Assembly (NCBI GenBank): GCA_021825295.1
Contig: JAKAHV010000002.1
Location: forward strand, 3,141 to 67,140
From: Nitrospirota bacterium
Lineage (GTDB): Bacteria > Nitrospirota > Thermodesulfovibrionia > Thermodesulfovibrionales > JdFR-88
Length of the DNA stretch: 64,000 nucleotides
Reading direction: 5' to 3'
Below, in pieces: positions 32,352 to 64,000 of the stretch (position 1 is the stretch's first letter; each line of letters opens with the position of its first letter). The notes beneath the pieces are model-generated. The model had not been told where the DNA came from, searched no databases, and worked only from the letters and a program-made list of their open reading frames with translations. A program made the position numbers and the translations under genes.

Positions 32352-32352
32352 T

Positions 32353-32661: not shown

Positions 32662-32668
32662 GGATAAA

Positions 32669-34561: not shown

Positions 34562-34580
34562 GAGGAGCGGGAAGTTTCAG

Positions 34581-45824: not shown

Positions 45825-47620
45825 CCGGAAACGATATTTTACAGACCGTTTTGTATTTCGGGGCCCTCGCGGTCCTCGCGGGGCCGCTTGGCCTGTACAT
45901 GGCGAGGGTTTACGAGGGCGCGCCCTGCGGCCTGGACGGAGTGCTGGGCCCGCTGGAGCGCCTCTTTTACCGGGTCTGCGGCATCCGTCAGGACGAGGAG
46001 ATGGACTGGAAACAGTATGCCACGGCGGTCCTCATATTCAGCGCGGCCGGCGTGTTCCTGCTTTATTTTCTTCAGCGCGTTCAGGGCGCGCTGCCGCTCA
46101 ATCCGCAAAAATTCGGCGCCGTGACCCCGGGGCTTTCCTTCAACACCGCCCTGAGTTTTGTGACAAACACCAACTGGCAGAACTACAGCGGGGAGACCGC
46201 GATGAGCTATCTTACCCAGATGGCCGGGCTGGCCGTGCAGAACTTCCTTTCGGCCGCGGCCGGAATGGCGGCGCTCGTCGCACTCATTCGCGGTTTCAAG
46301 CGGCACTCCGCCAATACCATAGGCAATTTCTGGGTGGATATGGCCCGCGGCACGCTTTACATACTGATGCCCCTTGCGCTTGTCTATTCGCTCCTTCTGG
46401 TCTCCCAGGGGGTTGTGCAGAGTTTCGGCAAATACAGGACGGTTGACCTTGTCGAGGCCGGCAACTACGAAATCCCGAGGCTGGATGCCGGCGGCAACGC
46501 CGTAAAAGACGCAAACGGGGACCCCGTTATGGAAAAGGCGAAGGTGACGCGTCAGGTGATCCCGCTTGGCCCCGCGGCCTCACAGATAGCGATAAAGCAG
46601 CTCGGCACAAACGGAGGCGGGTTTTTCAACGTCAACTCCGCCCATCCGTTTGAAAACCCCACCGCCTTTTCGAATTTCCTGGAGTGCCTTGCGATACTGC
46701 TGATACCCGCCGCGCTTTGCATAACCTTCGGGAAGATGGTTGGGGACAGGAGGCAGGGATTGGCCCTGCTTGCGGCCATGTTTCTGATACTGGTCCCGCT
46801 TACTTTCCTGTGCGCGTGGGCGGAGCAGGGCGGCAATCCGCATCTTGCCTCCATGGGGGTCGATCAGGCCGCAAGCGCCCTGCAGCCGGGCGGCAACATG
46901 GAGGGAAAGGAGGCCAGGTTCGGGATCGCCGATTCCACCATCTGGGCCGCCGCCACCACCGCGGCCTCAAACGGCTCTGTAAACTCCATGCACGATTCCT
47001 ATATGCCCCTGGGCGGCATGGTGCCGATGCTGCTCATACAGTTTGGGGAGGTCATATTCGGGGGCGTGGGCTCCGGGCTCTACGGAATGCTCATATTCGC
47101 CATCATAACCGTCTTTGTGGCCGGCCTGATGGTCGGCCGCACGCCGGAATACCTGGGCAAGAAGATAGAGATATTCGAGATGAAGATGGCGGCCCTGGTG
47201 GTGCTCATTGTAAACGCCCTCATTAAACTCGGAACGGCGATAGCCGTCTCGACGAAGGCGGGGACGGCCGGTATCGCGAACCCCGGGCCGCACGGTTTTT
47301 CCGAGGTGCTTTACGCCTTTTCGTCCTTCGCCGGCAATAACGGAAGCGCCTTCGCCGGCCTGAACGGAAACACGGTTTTCTACAATACGATCGGGGGGAT
47401 ACTCATGTTTTTCGGGAGGTTCTGGGTGATCATCCCGGTGCTGGCCATTGCGGGTTCGCTCGCCAAAAAGAAGCAGGTGCCGGCGGGGCTCGGGACGCTG
47501 CCGACCCATACCCCCCTTTTCGTGGTGTTTCTTATGGGGGTCATAGTGATAGTCGGCGCCCTGGCTTTCATGCCGGGCCTGGCGCTGGGCCCCATCGCGG
47601 AACAGTTGATGTACCACTGA
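45821..47620 (+). CDS. kdpA: potassium-transporting ATPase subunit A
   Basis: 599 aa. ...[22 protein letters not shown]...[22 protein letters not shown]...[11 protein letters not shown]... Confidence 0.95.
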
Positions 47621-47700
47621 TTCCAAAGAGAGCTGTTGTTGGGGTGAAATGGCCGGGAAAAACGGCCGGGAAAAATTTCTACAAAAAGGATTTAGGTATC

Positions 47701-49776
47701 ATGAGCGCGAAAAAAATAAAAAGGTCTCTTTTTGAGCCGAAGATTGTGCGCAGGGCGCTTCTGGATTCTGTCGGGAAGCTGAACCCTGTCTACCAGATCA
47801 AAAACCCGGTGATGTTCGTCGTGGAGACAGGCAGCGTCCTGACGACCCTGCTTTTCCTCCATGCTCTTATCACGGGCAGGGGCGAGGCGTCTGCCGTCTT
47901 CATCCTGCAGATTTCAGTCTGGCTGTGGATAACGGTGCTCTTCGCCAACTTCGCGGAATCCATGGCGGAGGGCCGTGGAAAGGCGCAGGCCGACGCCCTC
48001 AGAAAGACGAGGAAGGATGTTGTTGCCAAGCGCCTCTCCAAACCGGCCAGGGACTCCGGGGTTACGCAGGTCCCCTCTTCCGGGCTGAAGAAGGGCGATG
48101 TCGTCCTGGTGGAGGCGGGCGACATCGTCCCGATGGACGGCGAGGTGATCGAAGGCGTGGCCTCGGTCAATGAGAGCGCTATTACAGGCGAGAGCGCGCC
48201 GGTAATCAGGGAGTCCGGCGGCGACCGGAGCGCCGTCACCGGCGGCACGCTGGTGCTTTCGGACTGGATAGTGGTAAGGGTAACCGCCAGCCCCGGCGAG
48301 ACTTTTCTGGACAGGATGATAGGCATGGTGGAAGGCGCGAAGCGCCAGAAGACGCCAAACGAGATTGCGCTCGATATACTGCTGGCGGGGCTAACCATCA
48401 TATTCCTGCTGGTGACGGCGACCCTGCTGCCGTTTTCGATATTCAGCGTGAAGGCCGCGGGGCAGGGCAGCCCCGTTACCATAACGGTCCTCGTGGCGCT
48501 GCTGGTCTGCCTGATACCCACCACAATCGGCGGGCTCCTGTCGGCCATCGGCATCGCGGGGATGGACAGGATGATACAGGCCAACGTCATCGCCATGTCC
48601 GGGCGCGCCGTGGAGGCGGCAGGCGACGTGGATGTGCTTCTGCTGGACAAGACCGGCACGATAACGCTTGGCGACCGGCAGGCCACCCTTTTCATCTCCG
48701 CGCCGGGCGTTGATGAAAAGAACCTTGCCGACGCGGCCCAGCTCTCTTCACTGGCCGATGAGACGCCCGAGGGGCGGAGCATCGTGGTCCTGGCGAAGGA
48801 GAAATACGGCATCCGCGAAAGGGACATACATGCCCTTGGAGCGCAGTTCGTGCCCTTTTCCGCGCAGACAAGGATGAGCGGGGTGGACCTGAACGGCCGG
48901 CAGATACGCAAGGGCGCGGCGGACGCCGTGGAGAAATATGTGCAGAAGCAGGGCGGGACCTTTCCCGCCGGTGTCCGCGCGGCCGTGGACGACATCGCCA
49001 GGCAGGGGGCCACGCCCCTTGTAGTCGCGGAAGGCCCAAGCGTATTGGGCGTGGTCCGCCTCAACGACATCATCAAGGGGGGCATAAAAGAGCGTTTTGC
49101 AGAGATGAGGCAGATGGGCATAAAGACGGTCATGATCACGGGCGACAACCCGCTTACGGCGGCCGCGGTGGCGGCGGAGGCCGGCGTGGACGATTTCCTG
49201 GCGCAGGCCACCCCGGAGACCAAGCTGAAGCTCATCCGCGAGCATCAGGCGGGCGGCCGGCTTGTGGCCATGACCGGCGACGGCACAAACGACGCGCCCG
49301 CCCTGGCCCAGGCCGATGTGGCCGTCGCCATGAACACCGGCACGCAGGCGGCAAAGGAGGCCGGCAACCTGGTGGACCTCGATTCAAACCCCACAAAGCT
49401 CATTGAGATAGTGGAGATAGGAAAGCAGCTCCTGATGACGCGCGGAACGCTGACGACATTCAGCATATCCAATGACGTCGCCAAATATTTCGCCATCCTG
49501 CCGGCCGCTTTCGTCTCGATATACCCAGCCCTTGGGGCGCTGAATATCATGCGCCTGTCCACGCCGCAGAGCGCCGTGCTCTCCGCGGTCATCTTCAACG
49601 CGTTGATCATCATTTTTTTGATCCCGCTTGCGCTGCGCGGCGTCAAGTACAAACCCCTGGGCGCGCAGACCGTGCTTCGCAACAACGCGCTCATCTACGG
49701 AGTGGGAGGGCTGATAGTGCCTTTTATCGGAATAAAGCTTATAGACATGCTCATAACGGCCCTTCATATGGCCTGA
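47701..49776 (+). CDS. kdpB: potassium-transporting ATPase subunit B (P-type ATPase)
   Basis: ATG 47701 ([16 protein letters not shown]). Phosphorylation motif [27 protein letters not shown] hinge. Confidence 0.95.
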
Positions 49777-49785
49777 GGAGGAAAA

Positions 49786-50358
49786 ATGCCGCGGATGATC
49801 CGTAACTCTGTAATGTCCCTGCTGTTCATGACTGCGCTTACCGGTATCGTTTATCCCCTGGTTATAACCGGAATCGCCCAGGTGGCTTTCCCTGGCAGGG
49901 CGAATGGAAGCATCGTTGAGGAAAACGGCAAGCCCGTCGGCTCCGCCCTGATAGGCCAGCAGTTCGGCGGCCCCGGATATTTCTGGGGCAGGCCGTCGGC
50001 CACGACCCCTTATCCCTATAATTCCGCATCATCGTCGGGCTCCAACCTCGGCCCGAACAACCCGGACCTCATCCGGGCGGTCCAATCCCGCATAGATGCC
50101 CTGCGTGCGGCGGACCCCGGCAATCGAAGGCCCATACCGGTGGACCTCGTAACATCCTCCGCAAGCGGGCTGGACCCTGACATCAGCCCGGCTGCCGCCA
50201 TCTATCAGGCCGGAAGGGTCGCCAGGGCCAGGGGGCTGGATGTGGCGAAGGTCCGCGACCTTATCGCGGAGAACACCAGAGAAAGGTTCCTGGGAATATT
50301 CGGTGAGCCCGCCGTAAACGTGCTCAGGCTGAACCTGGCGCTTGACAATCTCAAATAA
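49786..50358 (+). CDS. kdpC: potassium-transporting ATPase subunit C
   Basis: 190 aa. N-terminal TM. GSALIGQQF...YFWGRPSA...SSGSNLGPNNPDL...VDLVTSSASGLDPDISPAAA. Confidence 0.9.
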   Translation: MPRMIRNSVMSLLFMTALTGIVYPLVITGIAQVAFPGRANGSIVEENGKPVGSALIGQQFGGPGYFWGRPSATTPYPYNSASSSGSNLGPNNPDLIRAVQSRIDALRAADPGNRRPIPVDLVTSSASGLDPDISPAAAIYQAGRVARARGLDVAKVRDLIAENTRERFLGIFGEPAVNVLRLNLALDNLK

Positions 50359-50432
50359 TGCAGTCCACTCTTGTTAAAATAATAAGGATGAAATGGATAG
50401 CGAGCGTATCCTCCTGCGTACTGCGGGACTTG

Positions 50433-50547
50433 TCCTGCGATCGCGCAGGATCAAACGAGCAAACATGATGAAAATAAAAAATCCTTACATTGTCCCGCGA
50501 AGCGCGGGACTGCGGCTTGCCGCAGGGAAGATCAATCAATCGCTTCC
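50433..50547. repeat. cluster of four consecutive GC-rich hairpins (BIME/REP-like)
   Basis: TCCTGCG-atcg-CGCAGGA (50433-50450). GTCCCGCG-aag-CGCGGGAC (50492-50510). CTGCGG-cttg-CCGCAG (50510-50525). GGAAG-N12-CTTCC (50526-50547). Confidence 0.7.
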
Positions 50548-50564
50548 TGCCGGGACGGATTGAC

Positions 50565-50885
50565 ATGCCTCTGATTGCCTGGTTCATATTTGTCCTTGCC
50601 GCCGTGTTCGAGGTTGGCGGCGATGCGCTGATACGGCGCGGGCTCACCTCCGGCGGCCTGTTTCTGATTCTGGCCGGTTTCCTCGTGCTCGGTTCATACG
50701 GGGTCACTGTAAACATGGTGAAATGGGATTTTTCAAAGCTCCTGGGTGTTTACGTGGGGGTGTTTGCCGTTGTAAGCGTCCTTTTCGGGCGATTCATTTT
50801 CAGGGAAGATATTGCCGGGGCCACCTGGGTGGGACTTTTCTTTATCGTAGCGGGCGGTCTGGTAATCCAGTTTGGGAGCAGATGA
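50565..50885 (+). CDS. YnfA/UPF0060-like small 4-TM membrane protein (DMT/SMR-like)
   Basis: ATG 50565. 106 aa. TM1 acidic residue (AAVFEVGGDALIRRG). GVYVGVFA and TWVGLFFIVAGGLVI align by eye with E. coli YnfA. Confidence 0.7.
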   Translation: MPLIAWFIFVLAAVFEVGGDALIRRGLTSGGLFLILAGFLVLGSYGVTVNMVKWDFSKLLGVYVGVFAVVSVLFGRFIFREDIAGATWVGLFFIVAGGLVIQFGSR

Positions 50886-50936
50886 AGACGTCCGGGGAAA
50901 GGAAGGCCGGAATATCCCGGGTTTGATAAGGGGAAA

Positions 50937-53621
50937 ATGATGGAGGACCGCAGGCCTACTCCCGAGGAGCTTCTGGAGGAGGCGCGCCAGGAGGCTGAGC
51001 GCGGCCGGGAGGGCCGGCTGAAGATATTCTTTGGCGCGGCCCCCGGTGTCGGAAAGACATATGCGATGCTCGAGGCCGCCAGGCAGAAACACGCCGAGAA
51101 CCTGGACATCGTTGTGGGGCTCGTGGAGACCCACGGACGCAAGGAGACCGAGGCCCTGCTTGAAGGGCTAGAAGTGCTGCCCCGCCGCGAAATCGAATAC
51201 CGCGGCGCCGTTCTGAAGGAGTTCGATCTGGACGCCGCGCTGGCCCGGAAACCCGCCATCATCCTTGTGGACGAGCTTGCCCACACAAACGCCCCCGGCT
51301 CGCGGCATAAGAAACGCTGGCAGGACATCTATGAGCTGCTTGGCGCCGGCATCTCCGTGTATACAACGATGAACGTCCAGCACCTGGAGAGCCTGAACGA
51401 TGTCGTCACACAGATCACCGGCGTGAGAGTGCACGAAACCGTCCCCGATTTCCTCCTGGACCGCGCGGATGACATCGAGCTTGTCGACATTTCCCCGGAA
51501 GACCTTCTGCGCAGGCTCCAGGAGGGCAAGGTGTATGTGCCGGAGCTGGCGGCCCGCGCGAGGGAGAATTTCTTCCGCAAGGGCAACCTGCTTGCGCTCC
51601 GGGAGCTGGCGCTCAGAAGGACCGCCGACAGGGTTGACGAGCAGATGCGCAGCTACCGGCTCGGCAAAAGGGTCAAGACGGTATGGCCCGCGGCGGAGCG
51701 GATACTCGTGTGCGTCGGCCCCAACCCCCGTTCGATACGCCTCATACGGGCGGCGAAACGCATGTCGGACAGCCTCAAGGCGGAGCTGATCGCGGTCTAC
51801 GTCGAGGCCCCCCACAAGGTAAAACCCTCTGAAAGCGATTTGAGGCAGCTTGCGGAGCACATGCGCCTGGCCGAGACCCTCGGAGCGGAGACCGTGACGC
51901 TGTCAGGGCCGAAGGCCTCCGAGGAGATACTTAATTACGCGCGCGCCAGGAACGTCACCAAGATATTGGTCGGCAAGCCCACTCATCCAAGGTGGAAGGA
52001 CAAGGTGTTCGGCTCGATGCTCGACGAGGTCGTGCGCGGCAGCGGGGACATGGATGTGTATGTGATAACCGGCGACATTGCGGAGCCGATGACCGGGCAC
52101 ATAGCGGAGACCGCCGCCCGGCCGCGGGCGGGCCTCAAGGAATGGCTCCTCAGTCCCTCGGTAGTTGCGGCCGCCACCGGGGTGGCATTCCTTTTGCCGT
52201 CCTATTCAACCGTCAACGTCGCCATGGTCTACCTGCTGGGCATCGTGTTCGTCTCAAGCCGCACGGGCAAGGGGCCTTCCCTGCTTGCGACCCTTCTGAG
52301 CGTAGCGGCATTCGATTTCTTCTTTATCCCCCCGGTTTATACCTTCGCCGTAAGCGACGTGAGATATTTCTTTACGTTTGTTGTCATGTTCGCAGTGGCC
52401 TTTGTCATCAGCGGCATGACGCTGAGAATTCGGAGGCAGGCCGCCTCCTCCCGCAACAGGGAGAGACGTACCGCCGCCCTATACGCGCTTTCCCGGGAGC
52501 TGTTGCACGAAAGGGGGATCGAACACTTAAGCGCGGTCGCTATAAAACATCTGAGCGAACTGTTTGCCAGCCGCGTGGTGATACTGGTGCCCGGAGAGCG
52601 GGGAAATCTCTCCGTGGCGATGACCGGTTTTTCGACCTTCGCCATGGACCAGAACGAGATGAGCGTGGCCCAATGGGCGTTCGACCACAGGCAGGAGGCC
52701 GGATTGGGGACCGATACCCTCTCCGGGGCGGAGGCCCTGTACATACCCCTTATGACATCCACGGGGACGGTGGGCGTGCTTGGCATAATGCCCGCCGGAG
52801 GGGGCGCCGCCTTCGACCACGAGCAGATACACGCGCTGGAGAGCTTCGCAAACCAGATAGCGATGGCCGTGGACAGGGCGTTCCTTGCGGAAGAGGCGCA
52901 GCGGGCCCTTGTGAGGGCGGAGGCCGAGGCCCTCCGCAGCACGCTGCTGAGCTCGGTCTCCCACGACCTGCGCACGCCGCTTGCCGCAATCACCGGCGCG
53001 GCCACCGCGCTTGCCGGGAGGGACGTCGCCCTCGACGTCCAAAGCAGGCATGAGCTTGTCCGGACCATCAAGGAAGAGGCCGATCATCTGAACCAGATCA
53101 TCAGGAACGTCCTCGACATGACGCGCCTGGAGGCGAAGGCCATAAGCGTGAAAAAGGAGTGGCAGTCCATCGAGGAGATCTCCGGGGTGGTCCTGAACCG
53201 GCTCTCGGACAAGCTGGAGGGCCGCCCTGTCAGGGTGGATATCCCCGAGGACCTGCCCCTTGTCCCCTTTGATCCTCTCCTCATCGAGCAGGTGCTCACC
53301 AACCTAATGGACAACGCGGTCAAATACACCCCGGCCGGCACCCCGCTTGAGATGTCCGCAAGGATAAAGGAAGGCTCGCTGATCTTCGAACTGGCGGACC
53401 GCGGCCCCGGAATCCCCCCGGGGGACGAGGAGCGGATATTTGAAAAATTCGTGCACGGCTCCGGGGGCGGCATAGGGCTGGGGCTTGCAATATGCCATGC
53501 CATCATCAAGGCCCACAAGGGGCGCATCTGGGCCGAAAACCGGCCGGACGGCGGCGCGGTCTTCCGGTTCACCCTGCCTGCCGGCGAGCCGCCGCCGATG
53601 CCCGAGCCCGAAGAGTTTTGA
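50937..53621 (+). CDS. kdpD: sensor histidine kinase KdpD
   Basis: 894 aa. N-terminal KdpD domain (LKIFFGAAPGVGKTYAML). Usp-like domain. 4 TMs. GAF-like region. H box SSVSHDLRTPL. HATPase motifs. Confidence 0.95.
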   Translation: MMEDRRPTPEELLEEARQEAERGREGRLKIFFGAAPGVGKTYAMLEAARQKHAENLDIVVGLVETHGRKETEALLEGLEVLPRREIEYRGAVLKEFDLDAALARKPAIILVDELAHTNAPGSRHKKRWQDIYELLGAGISVYTTMNVQHLESLNDVVTQITGVRVHETVPDFLLDRADDIELVDISPEDLLRRLQEGKVYVPELAARARENFFRKGNLLALRELALRRTADRVDEQMRSYRLGKRVKTVWPAAERILVCVGPNPRSIRLIRAAKRMSDSLKAELIAVYVEAPHKVKPSESDLRQLAEHMRLAETLGAETVTLSGPKASEEILNYARARNVTKILVGKPTHPRWKDKVFGSMLDEVVRGSGDMDVYVITGDIAEPMTGHIAETAARPRAGLKEWLLSPSVVAAATGVAFLLPSYSTVNVAMVYLLGIVFVSSRTGKGPSLLATLLSVAAFDFFFIPPVYTFAVSDVRYFFTFVVMFAVAFVISGMTLRIRRQAASSRNRERRTAALYALSRELLHERGIEHLSAVAIKHLSELFASRVVILVPGERGNLSVAMTGFSTFAMDQNEMSVAQWAFDHRQEAGLGTDTLSGAEALYIPLMTSTGTVGVLGIMPAGGGAAFDHEQIHALESFANQIAMAVDRAFLAEEAQRALVRAEAEALRSTLLSSVSHDLRTPLAAITGAATALAGRDVALDVQSRHELVRTIKEEADHLNQIIRNVLDMTRLEAKAISVKKEWQSIEEISGVVLNRLSDKLEGRPVRVDIPEDLPLVPFDPLLIEQVLTNLMDNAVKYTPAGTPLEMSARIKEGSLIFELADRGPGIPPGDEERIFEKFVHGSGGGIGLGLAICHAIIKAHKGRIWAENRPDGGAVFRFTLPAGEPPPMPEPEEF

Positions 53622-53657
53622 AATGGACCAGGAATATCGATTGGGAGGCCTGAGCGG

Positions 53658-54374
53658 ATGCCGGAACCAAAAGAGGCCATTCTACTTATAGAGGACGAAC
53701 CGCAGATGAGACGTTTCCTGAGGGTCGTCCTTCGGGGGCACGGCTACCAGATGTTCGAGGCGGCCACCGGAGAGGAAGGGCTTATGCAGGCGGCCCTCAG
53801 GAACCCCGAGCTTGTGCTGCTGGATTTGGGACTGCCCGACCTGGACGGAATCGAGGTGGCCAGGCGGCTGAGGGAATGGAGCGATGTGCCCATAATCGTC
53901 GTCTCCGCCAGGGAGCAGGAGACGGACAAGATCAGGGCCCTTGATGAAGGGGCCGATGACTATCTCATAAAACCATTCGGGGCGGGCGAGCTCCTGGCAC
54001 GGATAAGGGTGGCCCTGCGCCACAGGGCCATGCGGAGGTCCGGCCACAAGGAATCGTTCTTCATGGTCGACAACCTGAAAATAGATTTCGTGAAAAGGCA
54101 GGTCTTCCTGGATGATGAGGAAGTCCACCTCACCCCCATAGAGTACAAGCTCATCTGCCTGCTGGCGGGCAATGCCGGCAAGGTCCTCACCCACAGCCAG
54201 ATACTGAAGGAGGTATGGGGGCCGAATTACATCCACCAGACCCAGTATCTCAGGGTCTATATGACGCAGCTCAGGCACAAGCTCGAGGCGGACCCGGCAA
54301 GGCCCAGGTTCCTGATAAATGAACCGGGCGTGGGCTACAGGTTCAAGGCGGAATCCGGGAAAACCGCGTCCTGA
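53658..54374 (+). CDS. kdpE: response regulator KdpE (OmpR family)
   Basis: ILLIEDEPQM...LVLLDLGLPDLDG...DDYLIKPF. Winged-helix LTPIEYKLICLLAGNAGKVLTHSQIL...EPGVGYRF. Confidence 0.9.
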   Translation: MPEPKEAILLIEDEPQMRRFLRVVLRGHGYQMFEAATGEEGLMQAALRNPELVLLDLGLPDLDGIEVARRLREWSDVPIIVVSAREQETDKIRALDEGADDYLIKPFGAGELLARIRVALRHRAMRRSGHKESFFMVDNLKIDFVKRQVFLDDEEVHLTPIEYKLICLLAGNAGKVLTHSQILKEVWGPNYIHQTQYLRVYMTQLRHKLEADPARPRFLINEPGVGYRFKAESGKTAS

Positions 54375-55539: not shown

Positions 55540-56139
55540 ATGGAAAAGGCGAAGTGGGGACTTGCCGCCGCCGGCTGGATGGCCGCGGTCCTCTTCATAT
55601 CCGTTATGCCTCTTTCGGGTGCTTGTGCGCGGCCTCCACTGGCGGGCAGTCAGGGTACTTCGGACCTGAATGGCGCAGGCGATCCCCCGGGAGACCCCCG
55701 TACCGGCGAAGGGCTTTTTCTCGGGACAATAAGGTTTAAAAACGGCGGCCCCCCGTGCATGGGGTGCCACAACGTGGGGCTCATAAGGTTTCTTGGCGGA
55801 GGCAACCTTGGTCCTGATCTGACCGGCGCCTACACGGCCTTCGGGGAGGCGGGGCTTGAGGCCGCCCTCTCCGACATCGAGTTTCCCACGATGGCGCCGC
55901 TTTATGCGGACCATCCGCTTACCGCGGGCGAAGTGGGCGATCTTGCCGCATTTTTGAAGCTGGCCGCGAGGAGAAAATCCACGAATATGGAGCCGATGTT
56001 TCTATATCTTTCCGGCGCGGGCTTTCTCCTCTTCATGTCCGTAACATGGATTGCCTGGCGCGGCAGGATCGCGCCGGTCCGCAGGGCCTTGACAGAGCGC
56101 TACGGCAGCTACCCGGGCAGGGCTGCCGGAGCCGGGTGA
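55540..56139 (+). CDS. membrane-anchored monoheme c-type cytochrome
   Basis: ATG 55540. Signal peptide. One CxxCH (PPCMGCHNVG). C-terminal TM (MFLYLSGAGFLLFMSVTWIAW). Lies 8 nt upstream of narG. Confidence 0.75.
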   Translation: MEKAKWGLAAAGWMAAVLFISVMPLSGACARPPLAGSQGTSDLNGAGDPPGDPRTGEGLFLGTIRFKNGGPPCMGCHNVGLIRFLGGGNLGPDLTGAYTAFGEAGLEAALSDIEFPTMAPLYADHPLTAGEVGDLAAFLKLAARRKSTNMEPMFLYLSGAGFLLFMSVTWIAWRGRIAPVRRALTERYGSYPGRAAGAG

Positions 56140-56146
56140 GCGCGGC

Positions 56147-59100
56147 ATGGGGTGGATACGGGACCTTGTAAGGCCGAAGGCCAGGCTTTGGGAAGACCTT
56201 TACAGAAACCGGTGGCAATACGACAAGCGGGTAAGGAGCACCCATGGCGTAAACTGCACCGGGGGATGCTCCTGGTGGGTCTACGTCAAGGAGGGCATAA
56301 TCACCTGGGAGCTGCAGGCGACCGACTACCCGTATCTGGCGGAAGGGCTGCCCCATCACGAGCCCAGGGGCTGTCAGCGCGGCATCAGCTTCTCGTGGTA
56401 CATATACAGTCCCCTCAGGGTCAAATATCCTTACATAAGGGGCGTGCTTGCGGACGCCTGGCGGAAGGCCGTATCGCTGCATCCGGACCCTGTCGAGGCA
56501 TGGGCCTCGATCGTTGAGGACAACGAGACCCGGGGCCTTTATCAAAGGGCCAGGGGAAAGGGCGGGCTCAGGCGCACCACGTGGGAGGAGGCCGTCAGGA
56601 TAATCGCGGCGGCGACGATATACACGGCAAAAAGATACGGCCCGGACAGGATCACAGGCTTCTCGCCGATACCCGCCATGTCCATGCTCAGTTATGCGGC
56701 GGGCACGAGGTTTCTCTCGCTGCTTGGGGGCGTCACCCTCAGTTTCTACGACTGGTATGCGGATTTTCCGCCCGCCTCGCCGGAGGTGTGGGGCGAGAAG
56801 ACTGACGTTGGCGAGAGCGCGGACTGGTACAACTCGAAATATATTGTCGTCATGGGATCGAACCTCAACATGACCCGCACGCCGGACGCCCATTTCGCCA
56901 CCCAGGCGAGATACAACGGGGCAAAGCTCGTTGTCCTTTCAACGGATTTAAGCCAGGTGGCGAAGCACGCGGACTGGTGGCTGCCCGTGGCCGCTGGGCA
57001 GGACGGCGCTTTCTGGATGGCCGTCTGCCATGTGATACTGAGGGAATTCCACTTCGAAAAGCAGGTCCCCTATTTCACCGGGTACCTGAAGCGCTACTCC
57101 GACGCGCCGTTTCTTGTAAGCCTGGAGGGCGGCGGTCCGGAGGGCGTGGCGGCGGTTTACAGGGCCGGCAAGTTCCTGCACGCCGCCCAGCTCGAAAGAT
57201 ACGCAGGTGTTGAAAACGGCCACTGGAAGACGGTGGTCTTTGACCGCACCTCAGGCGGCCCGCGCATGCCCAGGGGTAGCATAGGTTTCAGATGGCAGCA
57301 GACGCGCGGTCTCTGGAACCTTGAGATGAAAGACGGCCTGGACGGCGAGGACCTCGATCCCGTCCTGAGCTTCGCGGACTCGGCAGATGACGTGCTGCAG
57401 GTCGCCTTCCGCGACCATGCGGGCGGGCGGGACATCGTCCGCGGCGTGCCGGTGAAATTCATCGACACGAAGGAAGGCAGGAAACCGGTCGCGACGGTCT
57501 TCGACCTCATGATGGGGCAGTTCGGGGTGGAGGGGAAGGGCGGCTACGACGACCCCGGCATGCCTTATACGCCAGCCTGGCAGGAAAAGCACACCGGCAT
57601 CAAGGGCGATACAGTGGTGAGGTTCGCCAGGGAATGGGCGGAGACGGCGCGCCTCACGCAGGGCAAGTGCATGATAATCGTGGGCTCCGGCTCAAACCAC
57701 TGGTATCACAGCAACCTCATATACAGGGCGGGCATTACCGCGCTTGTTTTATGCGGCGCGGTGGGTGTAAACGGCGGGGGGCTCAACCATTACACGGGGC
57801 AGGAGAAGGTCGCACCGAATGCCTCATGGACGAGCATAGCCTTCGCGCTGGACTGGATAAAGCCGCCCAGGCAGCAAAACGCCCCCTCTTTTCACTACGT
57901 CCATTCGGACCAGTGGAGGTACGACCCCCCGATGGACGAAAACACGATTCTGGGGAATTCCCATCCGATGGAGATGCAGGTGGACGCGGTCCGCATGGGC
58001 TGGCTCCCCTTCTACCCCCAGTTCGACTCAAAAAACCCGCTGGAGCTTGCGCGCGAGGCGGTCCGCGCCGGGGCGAAGTCTGACGGGGAAATTGCCGCGT
58101 GGATTGCGGGGCAGCTCAGGGAAGGGAAACTCCGTTTCGCAGTGGAGGACCCGGATGCCCCAGGCAACTGGCCCCGCCTCTGGTTCATCTGGAGGGGCAA
58201 CGCGCTGCATACCAGCGCGAAGGGCCAGGAGTATTTCCTCAGGCATTACCTGGGCACGGATTCGAACGCCGTCTCGGAGGAGGTGGAAAAACAGAGAATA
58301 AGCGGCGTCAGGCGGGGCGATATCGAATGGCGGGAGCCGGCCCCTCAGGGGAAGCTGGACCTTGTTGTGGACCTCAATTTCAGGATGGACACCTCAGCGC
58401 TCTATTCGGATATCATACTGCCTTCCGCCACCTGGTACGAAAAAAACGACTTGAACACAACCGACCTGCACTCCTTCATCCATCCGATGTCGGCGGCGGT
58501 GCCCCCATGCTGGCAGTCCAGGGACGACTGGGACATATTCGCGGCCATCGCCAGGGAGGTGGGAGAGCTTGCGCGCACCCATTTCCCGGAGCCCTTCAGG
58601 GACATCGTCTCAACCGCCCTCGCGCACGACACCCCGGATGAGATATCGCAGCCCGCCGTCAGGAACTGGCACAGGGGCCAGTGCGAGCCCGTCCCCGGGC
58701 AAACGATGCCGAACATCACGGTCGTGGAGCGCGATTACGCGAACATCCACGACCGCTTCGTCTCTTACGGCCGCGAACACAAAAAAAACGGGATGGCGGA
58801 GCACGGCATACGGTGGGAAGTGGCGGACCTCTACGACCGTTATCTCGAAAACGCCCCCTCTAGGCAGTTCGGCGGCGAAAGATACATAGCCATGGAGGAG
58901 ATGAAACAGGCGGCAAACGTCCTGCTTTACTTCGCGCCGGAGACCAACGGCGAGGTCGCCTGGAGGGGTTTTGAGGCGGAAGAAGAACACGCGGGCGTTG
59001 GCCTCAAGGACCTGGCCCGGGACGGCCGCAGCCTGAGATATAATTTTGACGACCTCCTGGCGCAGCCCCGGCGGCTCCTTACAAGCCCATTCTGGAGCGG

Positions 59101-59770
59101 CATCACAAACAACGGCCGGGCGTATTCGGCCTATTGCATCAATGTGGAAAGGCTGCTGCCCTGGCGCACGCTCACCGGCAGGCAGCATTTCTACCTGGAC
59201 CATGAAGGCTATCTGGATTTCGGCGAAAACCTCCCCACGTTCAAACCGGGGCTCAGCGCCGCCGGTTACCGGGATTTCGAAAAAAGCCGGCACGAGGGGG
59301 GCCCCGTTAAAACCATAGCCCTCGCCTACCTTACCCCCCACGGCAAATGGCACATCCACAGCACCTATTACGACAACCTCATAATGCTCACGCTCTCAAG
59401 GGGGGTGGAGCCCTTCTGGATGAACCCGGAAGACGCGGCCTTGGTGGGTGTGCGGGACAACGACTGGGTAGAGGTATTCAACGACAACGGGGTCGTCGTC
59501 ACGAGGGCCGCGGTGAGCGCGCGAATACCGAAAGGGGCCGGCTTCTTCTATCACGCTCCGGAGCGGACCATCGATTTCGCCAGATCGCCGCTCAGAAAGA
59601 TGGGGCGGGGCGGCGGGACGAACGCGCTGACGCGCATCCGCCTGAAACCCGTTTTCATGGTCGGCGGATATGCCCATCTGTCATTCGCCTTCAATGCCTG
59701 GGGGCCGCCGAGCCCGGACCGCGACGGTTTTGCCTTCGTCCGCAGGCTGCCGGGCAGGCCGGTCTTTTAG
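56147..59770 (+). CDS. narG: respiratory nitrate reductase alpha subunit (cytoplasm-facing NarG type)
   Basis: 1207 aa. Colinear by eye with E. coli NarG (RWQYDKRVRSTHGVNCTGGCSWWVYVKEGIITWE, GFSPIPAMSMLSYAAGTRFLSLLGG, DWYNSKYIVVMGSN, LPSATWYEKNDLNTTDLHSFIHP). No twin-arginine leader. Confidence 0.95.
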   Translation: MGWIRDLVRPKARLWEDLYRNRWQYDKRVRSTHGVNCTGGCSWWVYVKEGIITWELQATDYPYLAEGLPHHEPRGCQRGISFSWYIYSPLRVKYPYIRGVLADAWRKAVSLHPDPVEAWASIVEDNETRGLYQRARGKGGLRRTTWEEAVRIIAAATIYTAKRYGPDRITGFSPIPAMSMLSYAAGTRFLSLLGGVTLSFYDWYADFPPASPEVWGEKTDVGESADWYNSKYIVVMGSNLNMTRTPDAHFATQARYNGAKLVVLSTDLSQVAKHADWWLPVAAGQDGAFWMAVCHVILREFHFEKQVPYFTGYLKRYSDAPFLVSLEGGGPEGVAAVYRAGKFLHAAQLERYAGVENGHWKTVVFDRTSGGPRMPRGSIGFRWQQTRGLWNLEMKDGLDGEDLDPVLSFADSADDVLQVAFRDHAGGRDIVRGVPVKFIDTKEGRKPVATVFDLMMGQFGVEGKGGYDDPGMPYTPAWQEKHTGIKGDTVVRFAREWAETARLTQGKCMIIVGSGSNHWYHSNLIYRAGITALVLCGAVGVNGGGLNHYTGQEKVAPNASWTSIAFALDWIKPPRQQNAPSFHYVHSDQWRYDPPMDENTILGNSHPMEMQVDAVRMGWLPFYPQFDSKNPLELAREAVRAGAKSDGEIAAWIAGQLREGKLRFAVEDPDAPGNWPRLWFIWRGNALHTSAKGQEYFLRHYLGTDSNAVSEEVEKQRISGVRRGDIEWREPAPQGKLDLVVDLNFRMDTSALYSDIILPSATWYEKNDLNTTDLHSFIHPMSAAVPPCWQSRDDWDIFAAIAREVGELARTHFPEPFRDIVSTALAHDTPDEISQPAVRNWHRGQCEPVPGQTMPNITVVERDYANIHDRFVSYGREHKKNGMAEHGIRWEVADLYDRYLENAPSRQFGGERYIAMEEMKQAANVLLYFAPETNGEVAWRGFEAEEEHAGVGLKDLARDGRSLRYNFDDLLAQPRRLLTSPFWSGITNNGRAYSAYCINVERLLPWRTLTGRQHFYLDHEGYLDFGENLPTFKPGLSAAGYRDFEKSRHEGGPVKTIALAYLTPHGKWHIHSTYYDNLIMLTLSRGVEPFWMNPEDAALVGVRDNDWVEVFNDNGVVVTRAAVSARIPKGAGFFYHAPERTIDFARSPLRKMGRGGGTNALTRIRLKPVFMVGGYAHLSFAFNAWGPPSPDRDGFAFVRRLPGRPVF

Positions 59771-59836: not shown

Positions 59837-61327
59837 ATGAATATTCGCGCTCAGGTCTCGATGGTCTTTCACCTGGACAAGTGCATCGGCTGCCATACGT
59901 GCAGCGTCGCCTGCAAGAACATCTGGACGTCGCGTCCCGGGACGGAATACATGTGGTGGAACAACGTGGAGACGAAACCCGGCACCGGGTATCCGGCCCT
60001 CTGGGAAGACCAGGGCAGATACAGAGGCGGATGGACCGGAGGCAGGAGGGACGGGACAAAAGCGAAACTGAAACTGCAGGGCAGGGCGCAGGGCCTTGCG
60101 AATATCTTCTTCAACCCGCGCCTGCCCGCGATAGACGACTATTACGAGCCCTGGACTTACAGCTACCGGCATCTCACGGACGCCCCCCAGGCGGACGTCC
60201 AGCCGGTTGCGCTGCCCGTATCGCAGATAACCGGAGGGCGCATGAACATAGAGGCCGGCCCCAACTGGGACGACGACCTCGGCGGCTCCGAGGTCTACGC
60301 CGCGGCCGACCCCAATCTGGCCGCGCTCACGGATGAGGAAAAAAGGCAGCTCTTCAGTCTCGAACGGATGATGTTCTTCTACGTCCCGCGCATCTGCAAC
60401 CACTGCATAAACCCGGCGTGCGTGGGGGCATGCCCGGCCGGGGCCATCTACAAGAGGGGCGAGGACGGCATTGTCCTGGTGAGCCAGGACAAGTGCCGCG
60501 CCTGGAGGATGTGCATTTCGGGATGTCCTTACAAGAAGGTCTATTTCAACTGGCGCACCGGCAAGTCGGAGAAATGCATCCTCTGCTACCCGAGGCAGGA
60601 GACAGGCCAGGCCCCCGCGTGCTTTCATTCGTGCGTCGGGCGCATCCGCTACCTCGGGCTTTTGCTTTATGACGCGGACGGCATAGCCCGGGCCTCGGCC
60701 CGGCCCGCGCGGGAGCTTGTAAGCGCCCAGCGGGGGCTTATCCTCGACCCCTTCGATCCGGAGGTGACGGAGCAGGCAAGGCGCGACGGGCTCGACGACA
60801 AGGCAATACAAGCCGCCCGGAGGTCCCCGGTCTATAAATACGTAAAGGAATGGGAACTGGCCCTTCCGCTCCACCCGGAGTTCCGCACCCTGCCCATGCT
60901 GTTTTACGTGCCGTCGCTTCTGCCCGTGGCCGCCATTGTGGAAGGCGGCCTTTACAATACGGGGAGCGACTACTTCGGGGGCGTGATGCGCGCGCCGCTT
61001 AAATACCTTGCCTCCCTTTTTGCCGCAGGCGACGGACGGGAGATAGAGAGGATAAACAGGAAGCTCGTTGCCGTCCGCGTTTACAGGCGCGCGCAGTCCG
61101 TGGGCGATATCGACGCGAAAAAGGCGGAAGGGGTTTTGGAGGCGGCCGGGCTTTCGCCGCAGGCCGCGGAGGACATTTACCGCCTCACCGCTCTTGCCGG
61201 TTTCGAAGACAGGTTCGTCGTGCCGCCTTTCATGAGGGAGAGGATGGTGGAGGTTTTAGAGGACCCGCAGAGGCGCAAGGAGGACGCGGGCGCGGGCTAC
61301 CTGCGGAAAATCCGGCGGCGGTTTTGA
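59837..61327 (+). CDS. narH: respiratory nitrate reductase beta subunit
   Basis: MNIRAQVSMVFHLDKCIGCHTCSVACKNIWT...CNHCINPACVGACP...CRAWRMCISGCPYKK...CILCYPR. Four Fe-S cluster boxes. Confidence 0.95.
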   Translation: MNIRAQVSMVFHLDKCIGCHTCSVACKNIWTSRPGTEYMWWNNVETKPGTGYPALWEDQGRYRGGWTGGRRDGTKAKLKLQGRAQGLANIFFNPRLPAIDDYYEPWTYSYRHLTDAPQADVQPVALPVSQITGGRMNIEAGPNWDDDLGGSEVYAAADPNLAALTDEEKRQLFSLERMMFFYVPRICNHCINPACVGACPAGAIYKRGEDGIVLVSQDKCRAWRMCISGCPYKKVYFNWRTGKSEKCILCYPRQETGQAPACFHSCVGRIRYLGLLLYDADGIARASARPARELVSAQRGLILDPFDPEVTEQARRDGLDDKAIQAARRSPVYKYVKEWELALPLHPEFRTLPMLFYVPSLLPVAAIVEGGLYNTGSDYFGGVMRAPLKYLASLFAAGDGREIERINRKLVAVRVYRRAQSVGDIDAKKAEGVLEAAGLSPQAAEDIYRLTALAGFEDRFVVPPFMRERMVEVLEDPQRRKEDAGAGYLRKIRRRF

Positions 61328-61959
61328 TGGAAGATAAAAAGAGGCTTGCCCTGGGGCTCTTTGCGGACATGCTCGGATATCCGGGGGATGCGTCTTCCAT
61401 ACAGACCCTGGCCGGAAAGGCCCTCGAATGCGCCGCCCTTCTGGGGGGGAAGGCGAAAGACCCGCTGGCCGCCTTTTCGGAGCGTTTAAAGGCCATCGGA
61501 GAAGGGGGCGGGCTGGAAGAGATATTCACGGCCACTTTTGATTTCAGGGAGGATTGCTCCCCGTACGCGGGCTGCCATATCTTTGGAGAGGGCGGCCCAT
61601 CGCGCGGGGGCAATGATAGGCGCGGCGTCTTCATGGCCGGCCTGCAGGAGCAGTACAGGGCCTGCGGGTTTCCGCTCCGGCCCGGGGAGGAACTGCCCGA
61701 CCATCTGGCAGTCATGCTGAGGTTCCTCAGCCATCCCCCGGGACCGCATAACCGGCGGGCCGGAGAGTCCGGCGATTCTGGCGATTTTGGTGATTCAGGC
61801 GATTTTGATGATTCAGACAGGGGGGAGCTTGTAAGGGACTGCATCGTTCCGGCGGCCGGGAAAATGCTCAAGGCCATTAACGCGGGCGGCAGGGGCGAAA
61901 ATCCTTACGCATTTTTATTGCAGGCGCTGCTGGCCGCGCTGACGGACGGGGAGGTCTGA
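61327..61959 (+). CDS. narJ: nitrate reductase Mo-cofactor assembly chaperone NarJ (TorD family) with acidic repeat insert
   Basis: Position between narH and narI. ATG 61327 shares one nt with the narH stop (TGATG). Helical TorD-like sequence. Insert GESGDSGDFGDSGDFDDSD. Confidence 0.75.
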   Translation: MEDKKRLALGLFADMLGYPGDASSIQTLAGKALECAALLGGKAKDPLAAFSERLKAIGEGGGLEEIFTATFDFREDCSPYAGCHIFGEGGPSRGGNDRRGVFMAGLQEQYRACGFPLRPGEELPDHLAVMLRFLSHPPGPHNRRAGESGDSGDFGDSGDFDDSDRGELVRDCIVPAAGKMLKAINAGGRGENPYAFLLQALLAALTDGEV

Positions 61960-63159
61960 ATGGCCCCTGTTTATTTTGCCGTCATTCCTTACGCGGCGAT
62001 GGTTATCGCGGTCGCTGGGGGGATTTACCGCTATTTCGCGGACCGGTTCTCGTACTCCAGCTTTTCCTCCCAGTTGCTGGAGGACCAAACGCTCTTCTGG
62101 GGCTCCGTGCCCTGGCATTACGGCATAACCATCATTCTTTTTGCGCACGTCATTCCCATTTTTGCGCCTTCCCTCTGGGTATGGCTGCACAGCGACCCCA
62201 TGCGCATGCTGATTTTCGAGCTTATCGGAAGCGCCCTCGGCCTGCTTGCGATATTCGGCCTGCTGGCGCTCATTCTGCGCCGCATTCTAAGCCGGAGGGC
62301 GGCGGCGGTGACTTCCGTCATGGACTGGGTCCTTTTGGCCGGCCTCCTGCTGCAGGTGTCCGCGGGGGCGTATATAACGCTGTTTTACCGGTGGGGTTCG
62401 ATGTGGTACGTATATACCGCCGCGCCCTGGCTGCGTTCTCTTTTTATGTTTTCCCCGCGTCCGGATTTGATAACCGCGCTGCCATGGGTGGTGAGGTTCC
62501 ATGCCCTGAACGCGTTTGTCCTCATAGGGCTTTTTCCGTTTACAAGGCTCGTCCATATATTCACCGTGCCGGTTTCCTATTTATGGCGGCCCTATCAGGT
62601 GGTAATATGGAATGGCCCGGGCCGCGAGGCAGGCGCAATCGGGACAGGAGGCAACGGAGGCGGGGTGACACGCAGGGGATTTTTCCGGAAGGCCGTAATC
62701 TGGGCGCTGTCGGGGGCGGCGGGGATTGTCACCGCCGTGCCGGCGCTGCGGTTCATCATAAATGCCCAGCCGTTGTCCGGCCTCGTGTGGAGCAAGGTTG
62801 GCGATGTGGGCCCGCTTCCGGTGGACAGCCCGGTAAGCATGAATTTCGAGATGCGCTCCACCGAGGCCTATATGCACCAGATGGTGCTTCACGACGTCTG
62901 GGTCGTAAGGCGCTCCGCGGGCGGCTTCGCGGTCTTTTCCCCCATCTGCCCCCACCTGGGCTGCCATTACAAATGGGACCCGGAGATGGCGCATTTCGAA
63001 TGCCCGTGCCATGGGAGCGTCTTCACCATAGACGGCAGGGTGATCGCGGGGCCCGCGCCCCGTCCGCTTGACACCCTGCCCTACAGGATTGAAAACGGGA
63101 CGCTCTATGTGAAATGGGAGCGGTTCCAGGTGGGCATACCGAAAAAGGTGCGCGTGTAG
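61960..63159 (+). CDS. narI: nitrate reductase gamma subunit (NarI) fused to a Rieske [2Fe-2S] domain
   Basis: aa 1-~225 are NarI with both bis-His pairs (WHYGITIILFAHV; RFHALN...RLVHIF). Then a Gly-rich linker, the RRGFFRK motif plus a TM, and a Rieske domain (CPHLGCH...CPCHGS). Confidence 0.85.
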   Translation: MAPVYFAVIPYAAMVIAVAGGIYRYFADRFSYSSFSSQLLEDQTLFWGSVPWHYGITIILFAHVIPIFAPSLWVWLHSDPMRMLIFELIGSALGLLAIFGLLALILRRILSRRAAAVTSVMDWVLLAGLLLQVSAGAYITLFYRWGSMWYVYTAAPWLRSLFMFSPRPDLITALPWVVRFHALNAFVLIGLFPFTRLVHIFTVPVSYLWRPYQVVIWNGPGREAGAIGTGGNGGGVTRRGFFRKAVIWALSGAAGIVTAVPALRFIINAQPLSGLVWSKVGDVGPLPVDSPVSMNFEMRSTEAYMHQMVLHDVWVVRRSAGGFAVFSPICPHLGCHYKWDPEMAHFECPCHGSVFTIDGRVIAGPAPRPLDTLPYRIENGTLYVKWERFQVGIPKKVRV

Positions 63160-63169: not shown

Positions 63170-64000
63170 ATGCTTGACCGGATATGGGGCTGGTTCACCG
63201 GACGGTGGCCTTATTACAAGGTGCGGGACTTTCTGCTTGAGGAGGAGTTGCCCGGCCCGCCGAGCTTCGCCTATACGTTTGGCAGCACCGTGCTTCTGAT
63301 CTTCGCCCTGCAGGCGGCCACCGGCATTGCGCAGCTCTTCTATTACGTGCCCGCCATAGACCACGCGTATAACAGCCTCGCGTTCCTCAGAAGGCAGGTG
63401 CCCTTTGGATGGCTTATCCACAACCTGCATTACTGGGGCGCAAACATGATGGTCATCATGGTCAGCCTGCACATGGTCCAGGTCTACACATGGGGGGCCT
63501 ACAAGATACAGCTTACCTGGCTGATAGGCGTGGTCCTTCTCCTTGCGACCATGGCCATGAGCGTAACCGGCGCGACCCTCCCATGGGGCCAGGGGGGCTA
63601 CTGGGCGGGCGAGGTCAGCACGAGTATCGCCGGGGAGGTGCCGGTCGTGGGGGGGATTCTGGAGACCGTCATGCGCGGCGGCCATGTGATGGGCCAGCTT
63701 GCGCTTTCGAGGTTTTTCGTTTTTCACATCGGGATATTCGCCCCCCTGCTTGCGCTTTTTATCGGGGCGCACATACTGTCGTTTCGCCACAGCGGCATCG
63801 CGGGGCCCTGGGACCCCTCCAAAAGAGCAATAAAAGGCCGGTTCTGGCCGGACCAGGCCATGAAGGACGTCATCATGGGCAGCGCGGTTTTTTTTATCAT
63901 GCTGACCCTTTCCGTCTACTGGCCTCCCGGCTTTGGCGGCGCCGCCGATACCCTGAATACCATGTACGTGCCCAAGCCGGAGTGGAACTTTCTCTTTATC
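63170..64000 (+). CDS. cytochrome b (bc-complex type), 5' part; ORF runs off the window
   Basis: Not in the ORF track (no stop). AGGAGG at 63158-63163, then ATG 63170. 277 stop-free codons to nt 64000. Heme ligands HNLHYWGANMMVIMVSLH (H-X13-H) and FHIGIFAPLLALFIGAH (H-X14-H). PKPEWNFLF is the Qo-site PEW motif. Confidence 0.85.
   Translation, partial: MLDRIWGWFTGRWPYYKVRDFLLEEELPGPPSFAYTFGSTVLLIFALQAATGIAQLFYYVPAIDHAYNSLAFLRRQVPFGWLIHNLHYWGANMMVIMVSLHMVQVYTWGAYKIQLTWLIGVVLLLATMAMSVTGATLPWGQGGYWAGEVSTSIAGEVPVVGGILETVMRGGHVMGQLALSRFFVFHIGIFAPLLALFIGAHILSFRHSGIAGPWDPSKRAIKGRFWPDQAMKDVIMGSAVFFIMLTLSVYWPPGFGGAADTLNTMYVPKPEWNFLFI

Follow-up and report, generated by a model that had tools for sequence, protein, structure and literature searches.

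A gene that joins the nitrate reductase subunit NarI in frame to a bc-type Rieske protein in a Nitrospirota bacterium, and a possible link between Nar and a cytochrome b complex

In textbook accounts, bacterial respiratory nitrate reductase (Nar) receives its electrons directly from quinol through the membrane subunit NarI and is independent of the cytochrome bc complex. Are there bacteria in which these two enzymes are tied together? This question is raised by a gene in a 64,000-nucleotide stretch of DNA from a Nitrospirota bacterium (GenBank assembly GCA_021825295.1, contig JAKAHV010000002.1, positions 3,141 to 67,140 of the forward strand; hereafter the window). Within one open reading frame (ORF), the gene carries a full NarI followed by a full bc/b6f-type Rieske iron-sulfur protein, and it lies in a nar operon that continues into a cytochrome b gene. 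The reading of this arrangement that we favour, and to which we assign roughly even chances, is that the fusion serves both as the NarI anchor of NarGH and as the Rieske subunit of a dedicated cytochrome b complex, and thereby ties the two enzymes into an obligate supercomplex.

The narI::Rieske ORF occupies positions 61960..63159 of the window (+ strand) and contains 399 codons in an uninterrupted frame. Stand-alone NarI proteins have ~225 residues and a cytoplasmic end after transmembrane helix (TM) 5; the frame of the fusion runs 180 codons past this usual end. The Pfam domain Nitrate_red_gam (PF02665) was found over residues 5-217 (E-value 1.2e-61, 208.6 bits versus a cutoff of 22.9), and the protein also passed the NCBIfam narI equivalog TIGR00351 (115.3 bits versus a cutoff of 105.55). 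The NarI domain (residues 1-218, 61960..62613, + strand) comprises five TM helices and binds two b haems with the ligand pairs H53/H199 and H63/H181. Alignment to chain C of the Escherichia coli structure 1Q16 placed H53, H63, H181 and H199 opposite E. coli NarI H56, H66, H187 and H205. Hydropathy analysis revealed six hydrophobic segments in the fusion (residues 4-22, 50-74, 88-106, 115-142, 171-203 and 245-267), the last of which lies beyond the NarI domain.

The C-terminal part of the protein is a Rieske [2Fe-2S] domain (residues 277-399 and the stop codon, 62788..63159, + strand), which was recognized by Pfam (residues 297-374, E-value 1.7e-11), by PDB sequence matches and by fold, and which is predicted to reside on the periplasmic side. 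Both Rieske boxes are complete, with the two pairs of cluster ligands and the two disulfide cysteines: box I (C330-P-H-L-G-C335) is encoded at 62947-62964 and box II (C348-P-C-H351) at 63001-63012, both on the + strand. The closest PDB sequences are b6f/bc-type Rieske proteins, including that of Thermus, and are not of the oxygenase type. Matches to the NCBIfam models of PetC, proteobacterial and QcrA Rieske proteins all scored below the equivalog cutoffs, so the domain falls in no named subfamily. An AlphaFold2 model of the fusion (a single chain built on 95 homologues, with a mean predicted local distance difference test (pLDDT) score of 79) contains the NarI helices, a disordered region at residues 203-236 (pLDDT <50), a long helix at residues 238-268 and then a confident beta-rich domain. 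In Foldseek searches, the first half of the model matched E. coli NarI chains such as 1Q16_C, with TM-scores of 0.77-0.80 normalised to the target, and the second half matched bc/b6f-type Rieske domains of Chlorobaculum, Kuenenia and cyanobacteria. By profile scores, haem ligands, fold and gene position the fusion belongs to the NarI family, except that it does not end after TM5. An initial annotation of this DNA had described an in-frame NarI::Rieske fusion with five NarI segments and both haem His pairs, a twin-arginine-like motif with a sixth TM, and a complete Rieske domain with two boxes. The Pfam and NCBIfam profiles, the alignment, hydropathy and the structural model bear this description out: the twin arginines are R238-R239, the sixth TM is the helix at 238-268, and the boxes lie where they had been read.

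Could the single frame be an artefact of assembly or sequencing, with a stop codon or frameshift missed between two genes? We regard the chance of this as vanishingly small and rejected this explanation: the whole 1200 nt are identical at five loci of different assemblies, drawn from ENA (MEGAHIT-style contigs), Logan (the SRR13300764 assembly) and NCBI (a metagenome-assembled genome, MAG), and more than 100 homologous database clusters share the architecture. Both Pfam domains were present in 107 of the 120 best database clusters matched by the fusion protein. The initial annotation had proposed a database query for polypeptides that combine NarI and Rieske domains, and this query returned at least 95 proteins with the same architecture. 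An alignment of 95 fused homologues (41-62% identity) served as the reference set for conservation. Among the haem ligands, H63 and H181 never vary in this set, while conservation reaches at least 90% for H53 and H199; both Rieske boxes are invariant. The linker from W217 to R238 ranges from 16 to 59 residues and its sequence is unconserved. A linker that varies in both length and sequence yet keeps the frame is as expected of a real fusion under selection.

In the window the Gly-rich linker (residues 219-237, 62614..62670, + strand) has ~20 residues and is predicted to be cytoplasmic; the segment at residues 223-238 of the fusion reads EAGAIGTGGNGGGVTR. Within the linker, a GGAGG at 62656-62660 is located 4 nt ahead of an in-frame GTG (62665, V236), just before the twin arginines. 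The initial annotation had viewed this pair as the former, or still usable, start of a separate Rieske gene. The GGAGG and the GTG are indeed present, but they are not conserved and the pattern is not unusual. No Met or Val residue ahead of the twin arginines is conserved among the 95 fused homologues, and narH, a more upstream part of narI and, at two places, a PPDK-like gene of the window likewise contain an in-frame GGAGG followed after 3-10 nt by ATG or GTG. The Shine-Dalgarno-like motif is present in the linker because the Gly codons of this particular linker produce it. The view of the GTG as the relic of a gene boundary is therefore not supported.

These data also bear on whether two products are made in vivo, either by initiation at GTG 62665 (in addition to the full-length start or as the only start) or by cleavage in the linker or after TM6, in which case the fusion would exist only at the level of the gene. 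Such a scheme draws some support from the proximity of the GGAGG to the GTG just upstream of the twin arginines, and from several Acidobacteriota in which narI and Rieske genes are separate, so that separate products are functional. However, we consider it quite improbable, since the frame is kept through the linker in 95 homologues over the entire range of linker lengths, no start residue is conserved ahead of the twin arginines, the Shine-Dalgarno-like motif is a by-product of Gly codons with equivalents inside other genes, and no conserved signal-peptidase site after TM6 was detected in the alignment of homologues. As to the beginning of the protein, the public gene call starts the fusion at Met14 (386 aa, P0001). 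The true start is ATG 61960, which is preceded by GGAGG, because the family-invariant residues P10, Y11 and A13 are located upstream of Met14.

How would such a protein be inserted into the membrane? The linker is followed by a twin-arginine motif (TRRGFFRK) and TM6 (residues 240-268), which together span 62671..62763 (+ strand); R238-R239 are encoded at 62671-62676, and the hydropathy peak covers residues 245-267. R239 is invariant among the fused homologues and R238 is at least 90% conserved. The twin arginines and the single TM anchor that precede the Rieske domain are internal in the fusion and not N-terminal. By analogy with the N-out/C-in topology of E. coli NarI, the linker would be cytoplasmic, TM6 would run outward and the Rieske domain would be periplasmic. 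TM1-5 would then be inserted by Sec/YidC, and TM6 with the folded Rieske cluster domain would be inserted by the twin-arginine translocation (Tat) system through the internal motif, as in actinobacterial QcrA. The actinobacterial three-TM Rieske protein QcrA, Sco3746 and polyferredoxins are inserted by Sec and Tat (Keller 2012, PMC3471235; Tooke 2017, PMC5449189). Like these proteins, the fusion begins with Sec-type TMs, its last TM is immediately preceded by an internal twin-arginine motif that is conserved, and a cofactor domain then follows on the outside, which makes the comparison with them drawn in the initial annotation an apt one. In contrast to the published examples, it has six TMs and an N-out start, and its Sec-inserted part is a haem protein of another enzyme; NarI::Rieske is not among the published dual Sec/Tat families (PMC5449189). 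By this analogy, the fusion is probably inserted by Sec and Tat together. The insertion energy of TM6, calculated as a crude Hessa-scale sum, is positive (+2.8 in the window and +1.4 as the family median), with TM2 and TM5 similarly positive, and the weak hydrophobicity of TM6 is only suggestive as a Tat signature. Lys and Arg residues come after TM6 in most homologues, their number having a family median of 3 and being 1 in the window, but this feature is not distinctive.

The cytochrome b partner suggested in the initial annotation does follow the fusion: a cytochrome b gene recognized by Pfam (Cytochrome_B, E-value 2.1e-43) starts 10 bases after narI::Rieske, and its 5' part occupies 63170..64000 (+ strand), where it runs off the end of the window. 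The full gene is present on a 208-kb contig (L001, 11172-13106) and encodes 644 residues. Its N- and C-domains of cytochrome b, with the haem motifs Hx13H and Hx14H and the Qo motif PEWN, are fused to a pair of cytochrome c domains, each with a CxxCH motif, and the protein ends in a C-terminal TM (cyt b::cc). The order of the operon is thus cytochrome c, narG, narH, narJ, narI::Rieske and cyt b::dihaem-c, all on the + strand. narG (56147..59770) encodes the catalytic subunit with the molybdenum-bis(molybdopterin guanine dinucleotide) cofactor; it matched TIGR01580 (1443.8 versus a cutoff of 1084) and the Pfam domains Molybdopterin and Molydop_binding, and has the FS0 motif HGVNCTGGC. Its product is predicted to face the cytoplasm because no twin-arginine signal peptide is present at the N-terminus. 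narH (59837..61327) encodes the four-cluster iron-sulfur subunit and matched TIGR01660 (637.5 versus a cutoff of 524) from profile position 1. The public narH call begins 8 codons late (488 aa), and the profile alignment backs the longer ORF (window 59837-59860). narJ (61327..61959), for the assembly chaperone, was identified by Pfam Nitrate_red_del (E-value 2.2e-08), with the NCBIfam narJ match below cutoff. As in E. coli NarGHI (1Q16), the genes follow the narGHJI order, the equivalog thresholds are passed and the five-TM NarI has four haem histidines and a matching fold. Unlike in E. coli, NarI continues past TM5 into the linker, twin arginines, TM6 and Rieske domain, and the operon has a cytochrome c gene upstream and cyt b::cc downstream.

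The first gene of the operon (designated cytcUp, 55540..56139, + strand) encodes a membrane-anchored monohaem cytochrome c of NarC-like type, with a signal peptide, one CMGCH motif and a C-terminal TM. Its longest ORF begins at 55507, the gene call on L001 is 3542-4141, and the protein has a weak NCBIfam match to SoxX-type cytochrome c. Homologues are located upstream of narG in L006, L008, L016, L017, L055 and L084. In Thermus thermophilus, the narCGHJIKT operon described by Cava and colleagues in 2008 contains a gene for a cytochrome c subunit, NarC, which reportedly acts without a bc complex. The window operon shares with it a gene for a membrane-bound c-type cytochrome directly upstream of narG, and differs from it in that the Rieske/cytochrome b module is part of the operon. 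By analogy with Thermus, the cytochrome c gene upstream of narG suggests electron exchange between NarI and periplasmic c haems.

Could this system instead oxidise nitrite, with the enzyme working backwards? In that case NarGH would take electrons from nitrite and hand them through NarI to the c haems and the Rieske cluster, and they would reach the quinone pool by reverse flow through cytochrome b. Cytoplasm-facing nitrite oxidoreductases are close relatives of NarG, and a complex I operon is located 18 kb upstream of the nar operon, both of which would fit such a role. Yet NarG, NarH and NarI all pass the narGHI equivalog cutoffs, no terminal oxidase was seen nearby, and we know of no nitrite oxidisers in the groups that carry the fusion (Nitrospiraceae- or Thermodesulfovibrionales-like and Acidobacteriota MAGs). 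We regard operation as a nitrite oxidoreductase as very improbable.

If the fusion reflects a working link between the two enzymes, is this link found elsewhere? The fused proteins form two subfamilies. Group 1, to which the window fusion belongs, has the Rieske signature CPHLGCHY..CPCHGS and the C-terminal tail KWERFQVGIPKKVRV, and its sources are named as Nitrospiraceae and Thermodesulfobacteriota MAGs. The closest fused relative, from a Nitrospiraceae MAG (L091, 62% identity), has an identical operon order, including the pentose-phosphate and SLAC1 genes that follow it. The window Rieske and cyt b::cc proteins are 60% and 62% identical, respectively, to those of stand-alone modules without nearby nar genes in Thermodesulfovibrionales/Nitrospirae MAGs (L009 and L010), and in one Nitrospiraceae genome (L014) a stand-alone Rieske-cyt b::cc module of group 1 directly follows the nuo operon (after nuoN). 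The closest NarI (74% identity; NarG 81%) is encoded in an ordinary unfused cytc-narGHJI operon, which is followed by SLAC1 (L006). The Qo motif is PEWN, and not the usual PEWY or PDWY, in all group-1 cytochromes b, whether nar-linked or stand-alone.

Group 2 has the signature CTHLGCPVRW..CPCHGG, occurs in Bryobacterales, Solibacter and Terracidiphilus (Acidobacteriota) and shows the same operon order as the window, and its Rieske domain is only 30-35% identical to that of the window. Its cytochrome b carries one c haem, and among the five examined the Qo motif is PDWY in four from fused operons and PEWY in a split example (L055). In this group, narI and the Rieske gene are fused at L016-L018, L094 and L095, and separate but adjacent, with a stop codon and an own ATG, at L022, L047, L055 and L084. 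On the 404-kb contig L094, the narG call is split into two ORFs of 709 and 686 aa (3797-7964), for which an assembly frameshift is the probable cause. Because one search pattern of the genome-contig scan lay in the Rieske box, mostly ordinary Rieske proteins were returned, and the taxa named here cover the carriers of the fusion only incompletely.

Neighbour-joining trees, which are distance-based, use short domains and carry no support values, placed each fused Rieske group among stand-alone Rieske proteins of its own kind and showed fused and unfused NarI proteins interleaved in the clade of the window. Whatever the fine branching of these trees, the link between Nar and Rieske/cytochrome b arose at least twice, since two very different Rieske/cytochrome b lineages have been joined to NarI. 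The linkage of nar, Rieske and cytochrome b genes in two unrelated lineages, whether fused or split, is good genomic evidence for a physical Nar-bc association, and we think it likely that NarGHI and the Rieske/cytochrome b module are indeed physically associated.

Precedents exist for a connection of this kind. Operons for the haloarchaeal pNar, e.g., in Haloferax mediterranei, encode a Rieske protein (NarB) and a cytochrome b (NarC), for which a Q-cycle mechanism has been proposed (PMC2483277). The window resembles these operons in having Rieske and cytochrome b genes within a nar operon. However, archaeal NarG is exported by Tat and faces outward, and NarI is absent, whereas NarG of the window has no twin-arginine signal and NarI is present and fused to the Rieske protein. 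In Streptomyces coelicolor, the cytoplasm-facing NarGHI enzyme Nar1 requires an active bcc-aa3 supercomplex in vivo and co-purifies with QcrA, QcrB and QcrC (Falke et al. 2021, PMC7931247); a working Q cycle has been proposed for this enzyme, with electrons that enter NarI at haem bD (PMC7931247). The Streptomyces association is a biochemical one between products of genes that are neither linked nor fused, whereas in the window the link is in the gene structure and occurs in other phyla.

How would electrons move in an obligate supercomplex of Nar and a dedicated cytochrome b complex? Its stoichiometry would be 1:1, and menaquinol would be oxidised at the Qo site of cytochrome b. The first electron would pass from the Rieske cluster to the c haems (those of cyt b::cc, the NarC-like cytochrome or both) and then to NarI haem bD, haem bP, NarH, NarG and nitrate, and the second would return through bL/bH to the Qi site. 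With Nar in place of a terminal oxidase behind the Q cycle, ~4 charges would be separated per 2 electrons, versus 2 for the ordinary NarI redox loop. As to whether electrons do flow from the bc module into NarI, we infer that they may, with the balance of probability close to even. We also put forward, tentatively, a more far-reaching proposal. NarGH would unite with NarI::Rieske, cyt b::cc and the NarC-like cytochrome in one menaquinol:nitrate oxidoreductase, whose haem bD is fed from the periplasmic side by a Q cycle, with about twice the textbook charge separation. Such a system would have evolved on at least two occasions, among Nitrospirota-like bacteria and among Acidobacteriota, and the fusion would represent a new class of membrane proteins with an N-out start and six TMs, whose insertion depends on Sec as well as Tat.

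Several points weigh against a supercomplex of this kind. Direct redox contact of the Rieske cluster or c haems with NarI, like the direction of flow, is what we infer, and the AlphaFold2 model, being of a single chain, is silent on the geometry between subunits. NarI may still oxidise quinol, because all four haem ligands and an Arg beside the K86 position are kept in fused and unfused proteins alike. E. coli K86, in the quinol site near haem bD, aligns with M81 of the fusion, with R82 next to it; this Arg is common but not invariant and is equally frequent in fused and unfused relatives, and thus loss of the quinol site gave no clue to electron direction. The fusion is dispensable in close relatives, because the closest NarI is found in an ordinary unfused nar operon. 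The group-1 bc module that follows the complex I operon in L014 looks like a general complex III. Finally, the fused relatives P0019 and P0006 (loci L092 and L096) end their nar operons without an adjacent cytochrome b gene.

Part of this evidence fits an alternative in which the two enzymes are co-assembled without electron transfer between them. NarI would remain a quinol oxidase and the bc module an ordinary complex III for periplasmic cytochromes c that serve nitrite, NO and N2O reductases or an oxidase, and the fusion would only set stoichiometry, co-regulation or co-localisation. The retained haem ligands and the basic residue near the quinol-site position of NarI agree with this view, as do the stand-alone occurrence of the same bc type in relatives (L009, L010, L013 and L014, in the last case after the nuo operon), the cytochrome b with c haems of its own as an exit route, and the presence of NarC-like cytochromes in unfused nar operons as well. 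However, co-regulation alone hardly explains convergent fusion or adjacency in two unrelated bc lineages, a covalent joining of subunits of two complexes without functional exchange would be unusual, and the Nar of Streptomyces is functionally dependent on bcc. On balance, co-assembly alone seems to us rather unlikely.

Does NarI also acquire periplasmic redox domains of other kinds? A wider search for fusions covered 1.84 billion cluster representatives and revealed several related domain arrangements. A group-1 Rieske domain was fused behind cyt b::cc in P0148 and behind a homologue of cytcUp (39% identity over 130 aa) in P0147. NarI was fused to c-type cytochromes in P0136 and P0260, which include cytochrome c::NarI and NarI::multihaem cytochrome c arrangements, and to other Rieske types through a coiled-coil-like segment in P0124, P0128, P0156 and P0163. 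The fusions of NarI to c-type cytochromes (P0136 and P0260) point to periplasmic redox partners at the bD side and, with P0148 and P0147, count in favour of the supercomplex reading. One fused NarI::Rieske protein (P0049, L093 2661-3875) is encoded outside any nar operon, beside genes for a cytochrome c and a UbiA-family protein; both of its cytoplasmic-side haem ligands have been lost (Leu and Gln in place of His), so that the haem on the periplasmic side is probably the only one left. A NarI::MFS transporter fusion was also among the proteins listed (P0151 in the same set).

Such arrangements raise the possibility that NarI uses the Rieske domain as an electron port on the periplasmic side, independent of cytochrome b, to exchange electrons between haem bD and soluble or membrane-bound periplasmic carriers, comparable to the Rieske subunit of arsenite oxidase, with the neighbouring cytochrome b being secondary. 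The fusions that join NarI-family proteins with Rieske domains of other types or with multihaem cytochromes c (P0124, P0128, P0156, P0163 and P0260) and the P0019 and P0006 operons that lack an adjacent cytochrome b gene could be understood in this way. Nevertheless, we find a cytochrome b-independent port improbable. Only 8-55 nt separate the fusion from the start of the cytochrome b gene in the window, in L091 and in every group-2 operon examined; the Rieske domain belongs to the bc/b6f type; and its closest stand-alone relatives are always followed by cytochrome b. Moreover, the two exceptions come from a fragmented metagenome assembly, and their cytochrome b may be encoded elsewhere.

If an obligate Nar-bc supercomplex is the correct reading, what would it mean? 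The convergent fusion of NarI and Rieske proteins, together with a dedicated cytochrome b, would act as a 'Rosetta stone' for Nar and the bc complex as one machine in several uncultured soil and sediment lineages. It would bear on the question raised by Streptomyces Nar1 of whether a bc complex can feed a cytoplasm-facing Nar, and offers an argument from gene structure for bc-dependent, possibly Q-cycle-coupled, Nar respiration in bacteria that is directly testable. If this is true, the energy yield assumed for nitrate respiration in the carrier groups would change. The fusion also provides a single stoichiometric target for cryo-electron microscopy and extends, by one candidate family, the short list of proteins whose insertion requires Sec as well as Tat. 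We found no description of a NarI::Rieske fusion in the literature searched, where Bacillus and Nitrospira papers that mention both terms concern other proteins. The fusion proteins themselves are already public, but are named only 'respiratory nitrate reductase subunit gamma', an annotation that hides both the Rieske fusion and the bc link. Accordingly, the view in the initial annotation that no nitrate reductase with such an anchor had been described holds for the fusion in the literature searched, but not for the wider idea of a Nar tied to Rieske and cytochrome b, which has precedents in haloarchaeal narB/narC and S. coelicolor Nar1, and the proteins were already in databases.

The genes that surround the operon are in part conserved as well. 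On the 5' side, the nar operon is preceded by kdpABC-kdpDE and a Usp gene, with the complex I operon farther up. The latter, at window positions 23925-37662, includes a fused nuoCD, nuoG, nuoL, nuoM and nuoN. kdpABC and then kdpD/kdpE, at 45821-54374, separate the PPDK-like gene from the nar operon. In L091 the PPDK-like gene leads directly to the Usp gene and the nar operon, so the two genomes seem to differ by an insertion or a deletion of the kdp cluster. On the 3' side, L001 13110-18166 contains pentose-phosphate genes (rpiB, zwf, pgl, gnd and others) and a gene for a SLAC1/TehA-type anion channel. Pentose-phosphate genes and this type of channel are likewise located 3' of the operon in L091 (13184-21191), and in L006, whose narI is unfused, SLAC1 is the next gene after narI (8725-9738). 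The SLAC1/TehA-type channel may serve as a nitrate/nitrite channel in place of NarK.

Two further proteins of the window have unusual domain compositions. The PPDK-like protein (39813-44243) has 1476 residues, with the PPDK_N and PEP-utilizer domains found only in its C-terminal third and no Pfam match in the N-terminal 1000 residues; a conserved counterpart precedes the nar operon in the related MAG (L091, 1-2840). Another protein, of 1010 residues (17526-20558), combines M1 peptidase, ChaN/Tiki haem-binding and PDZ domains.

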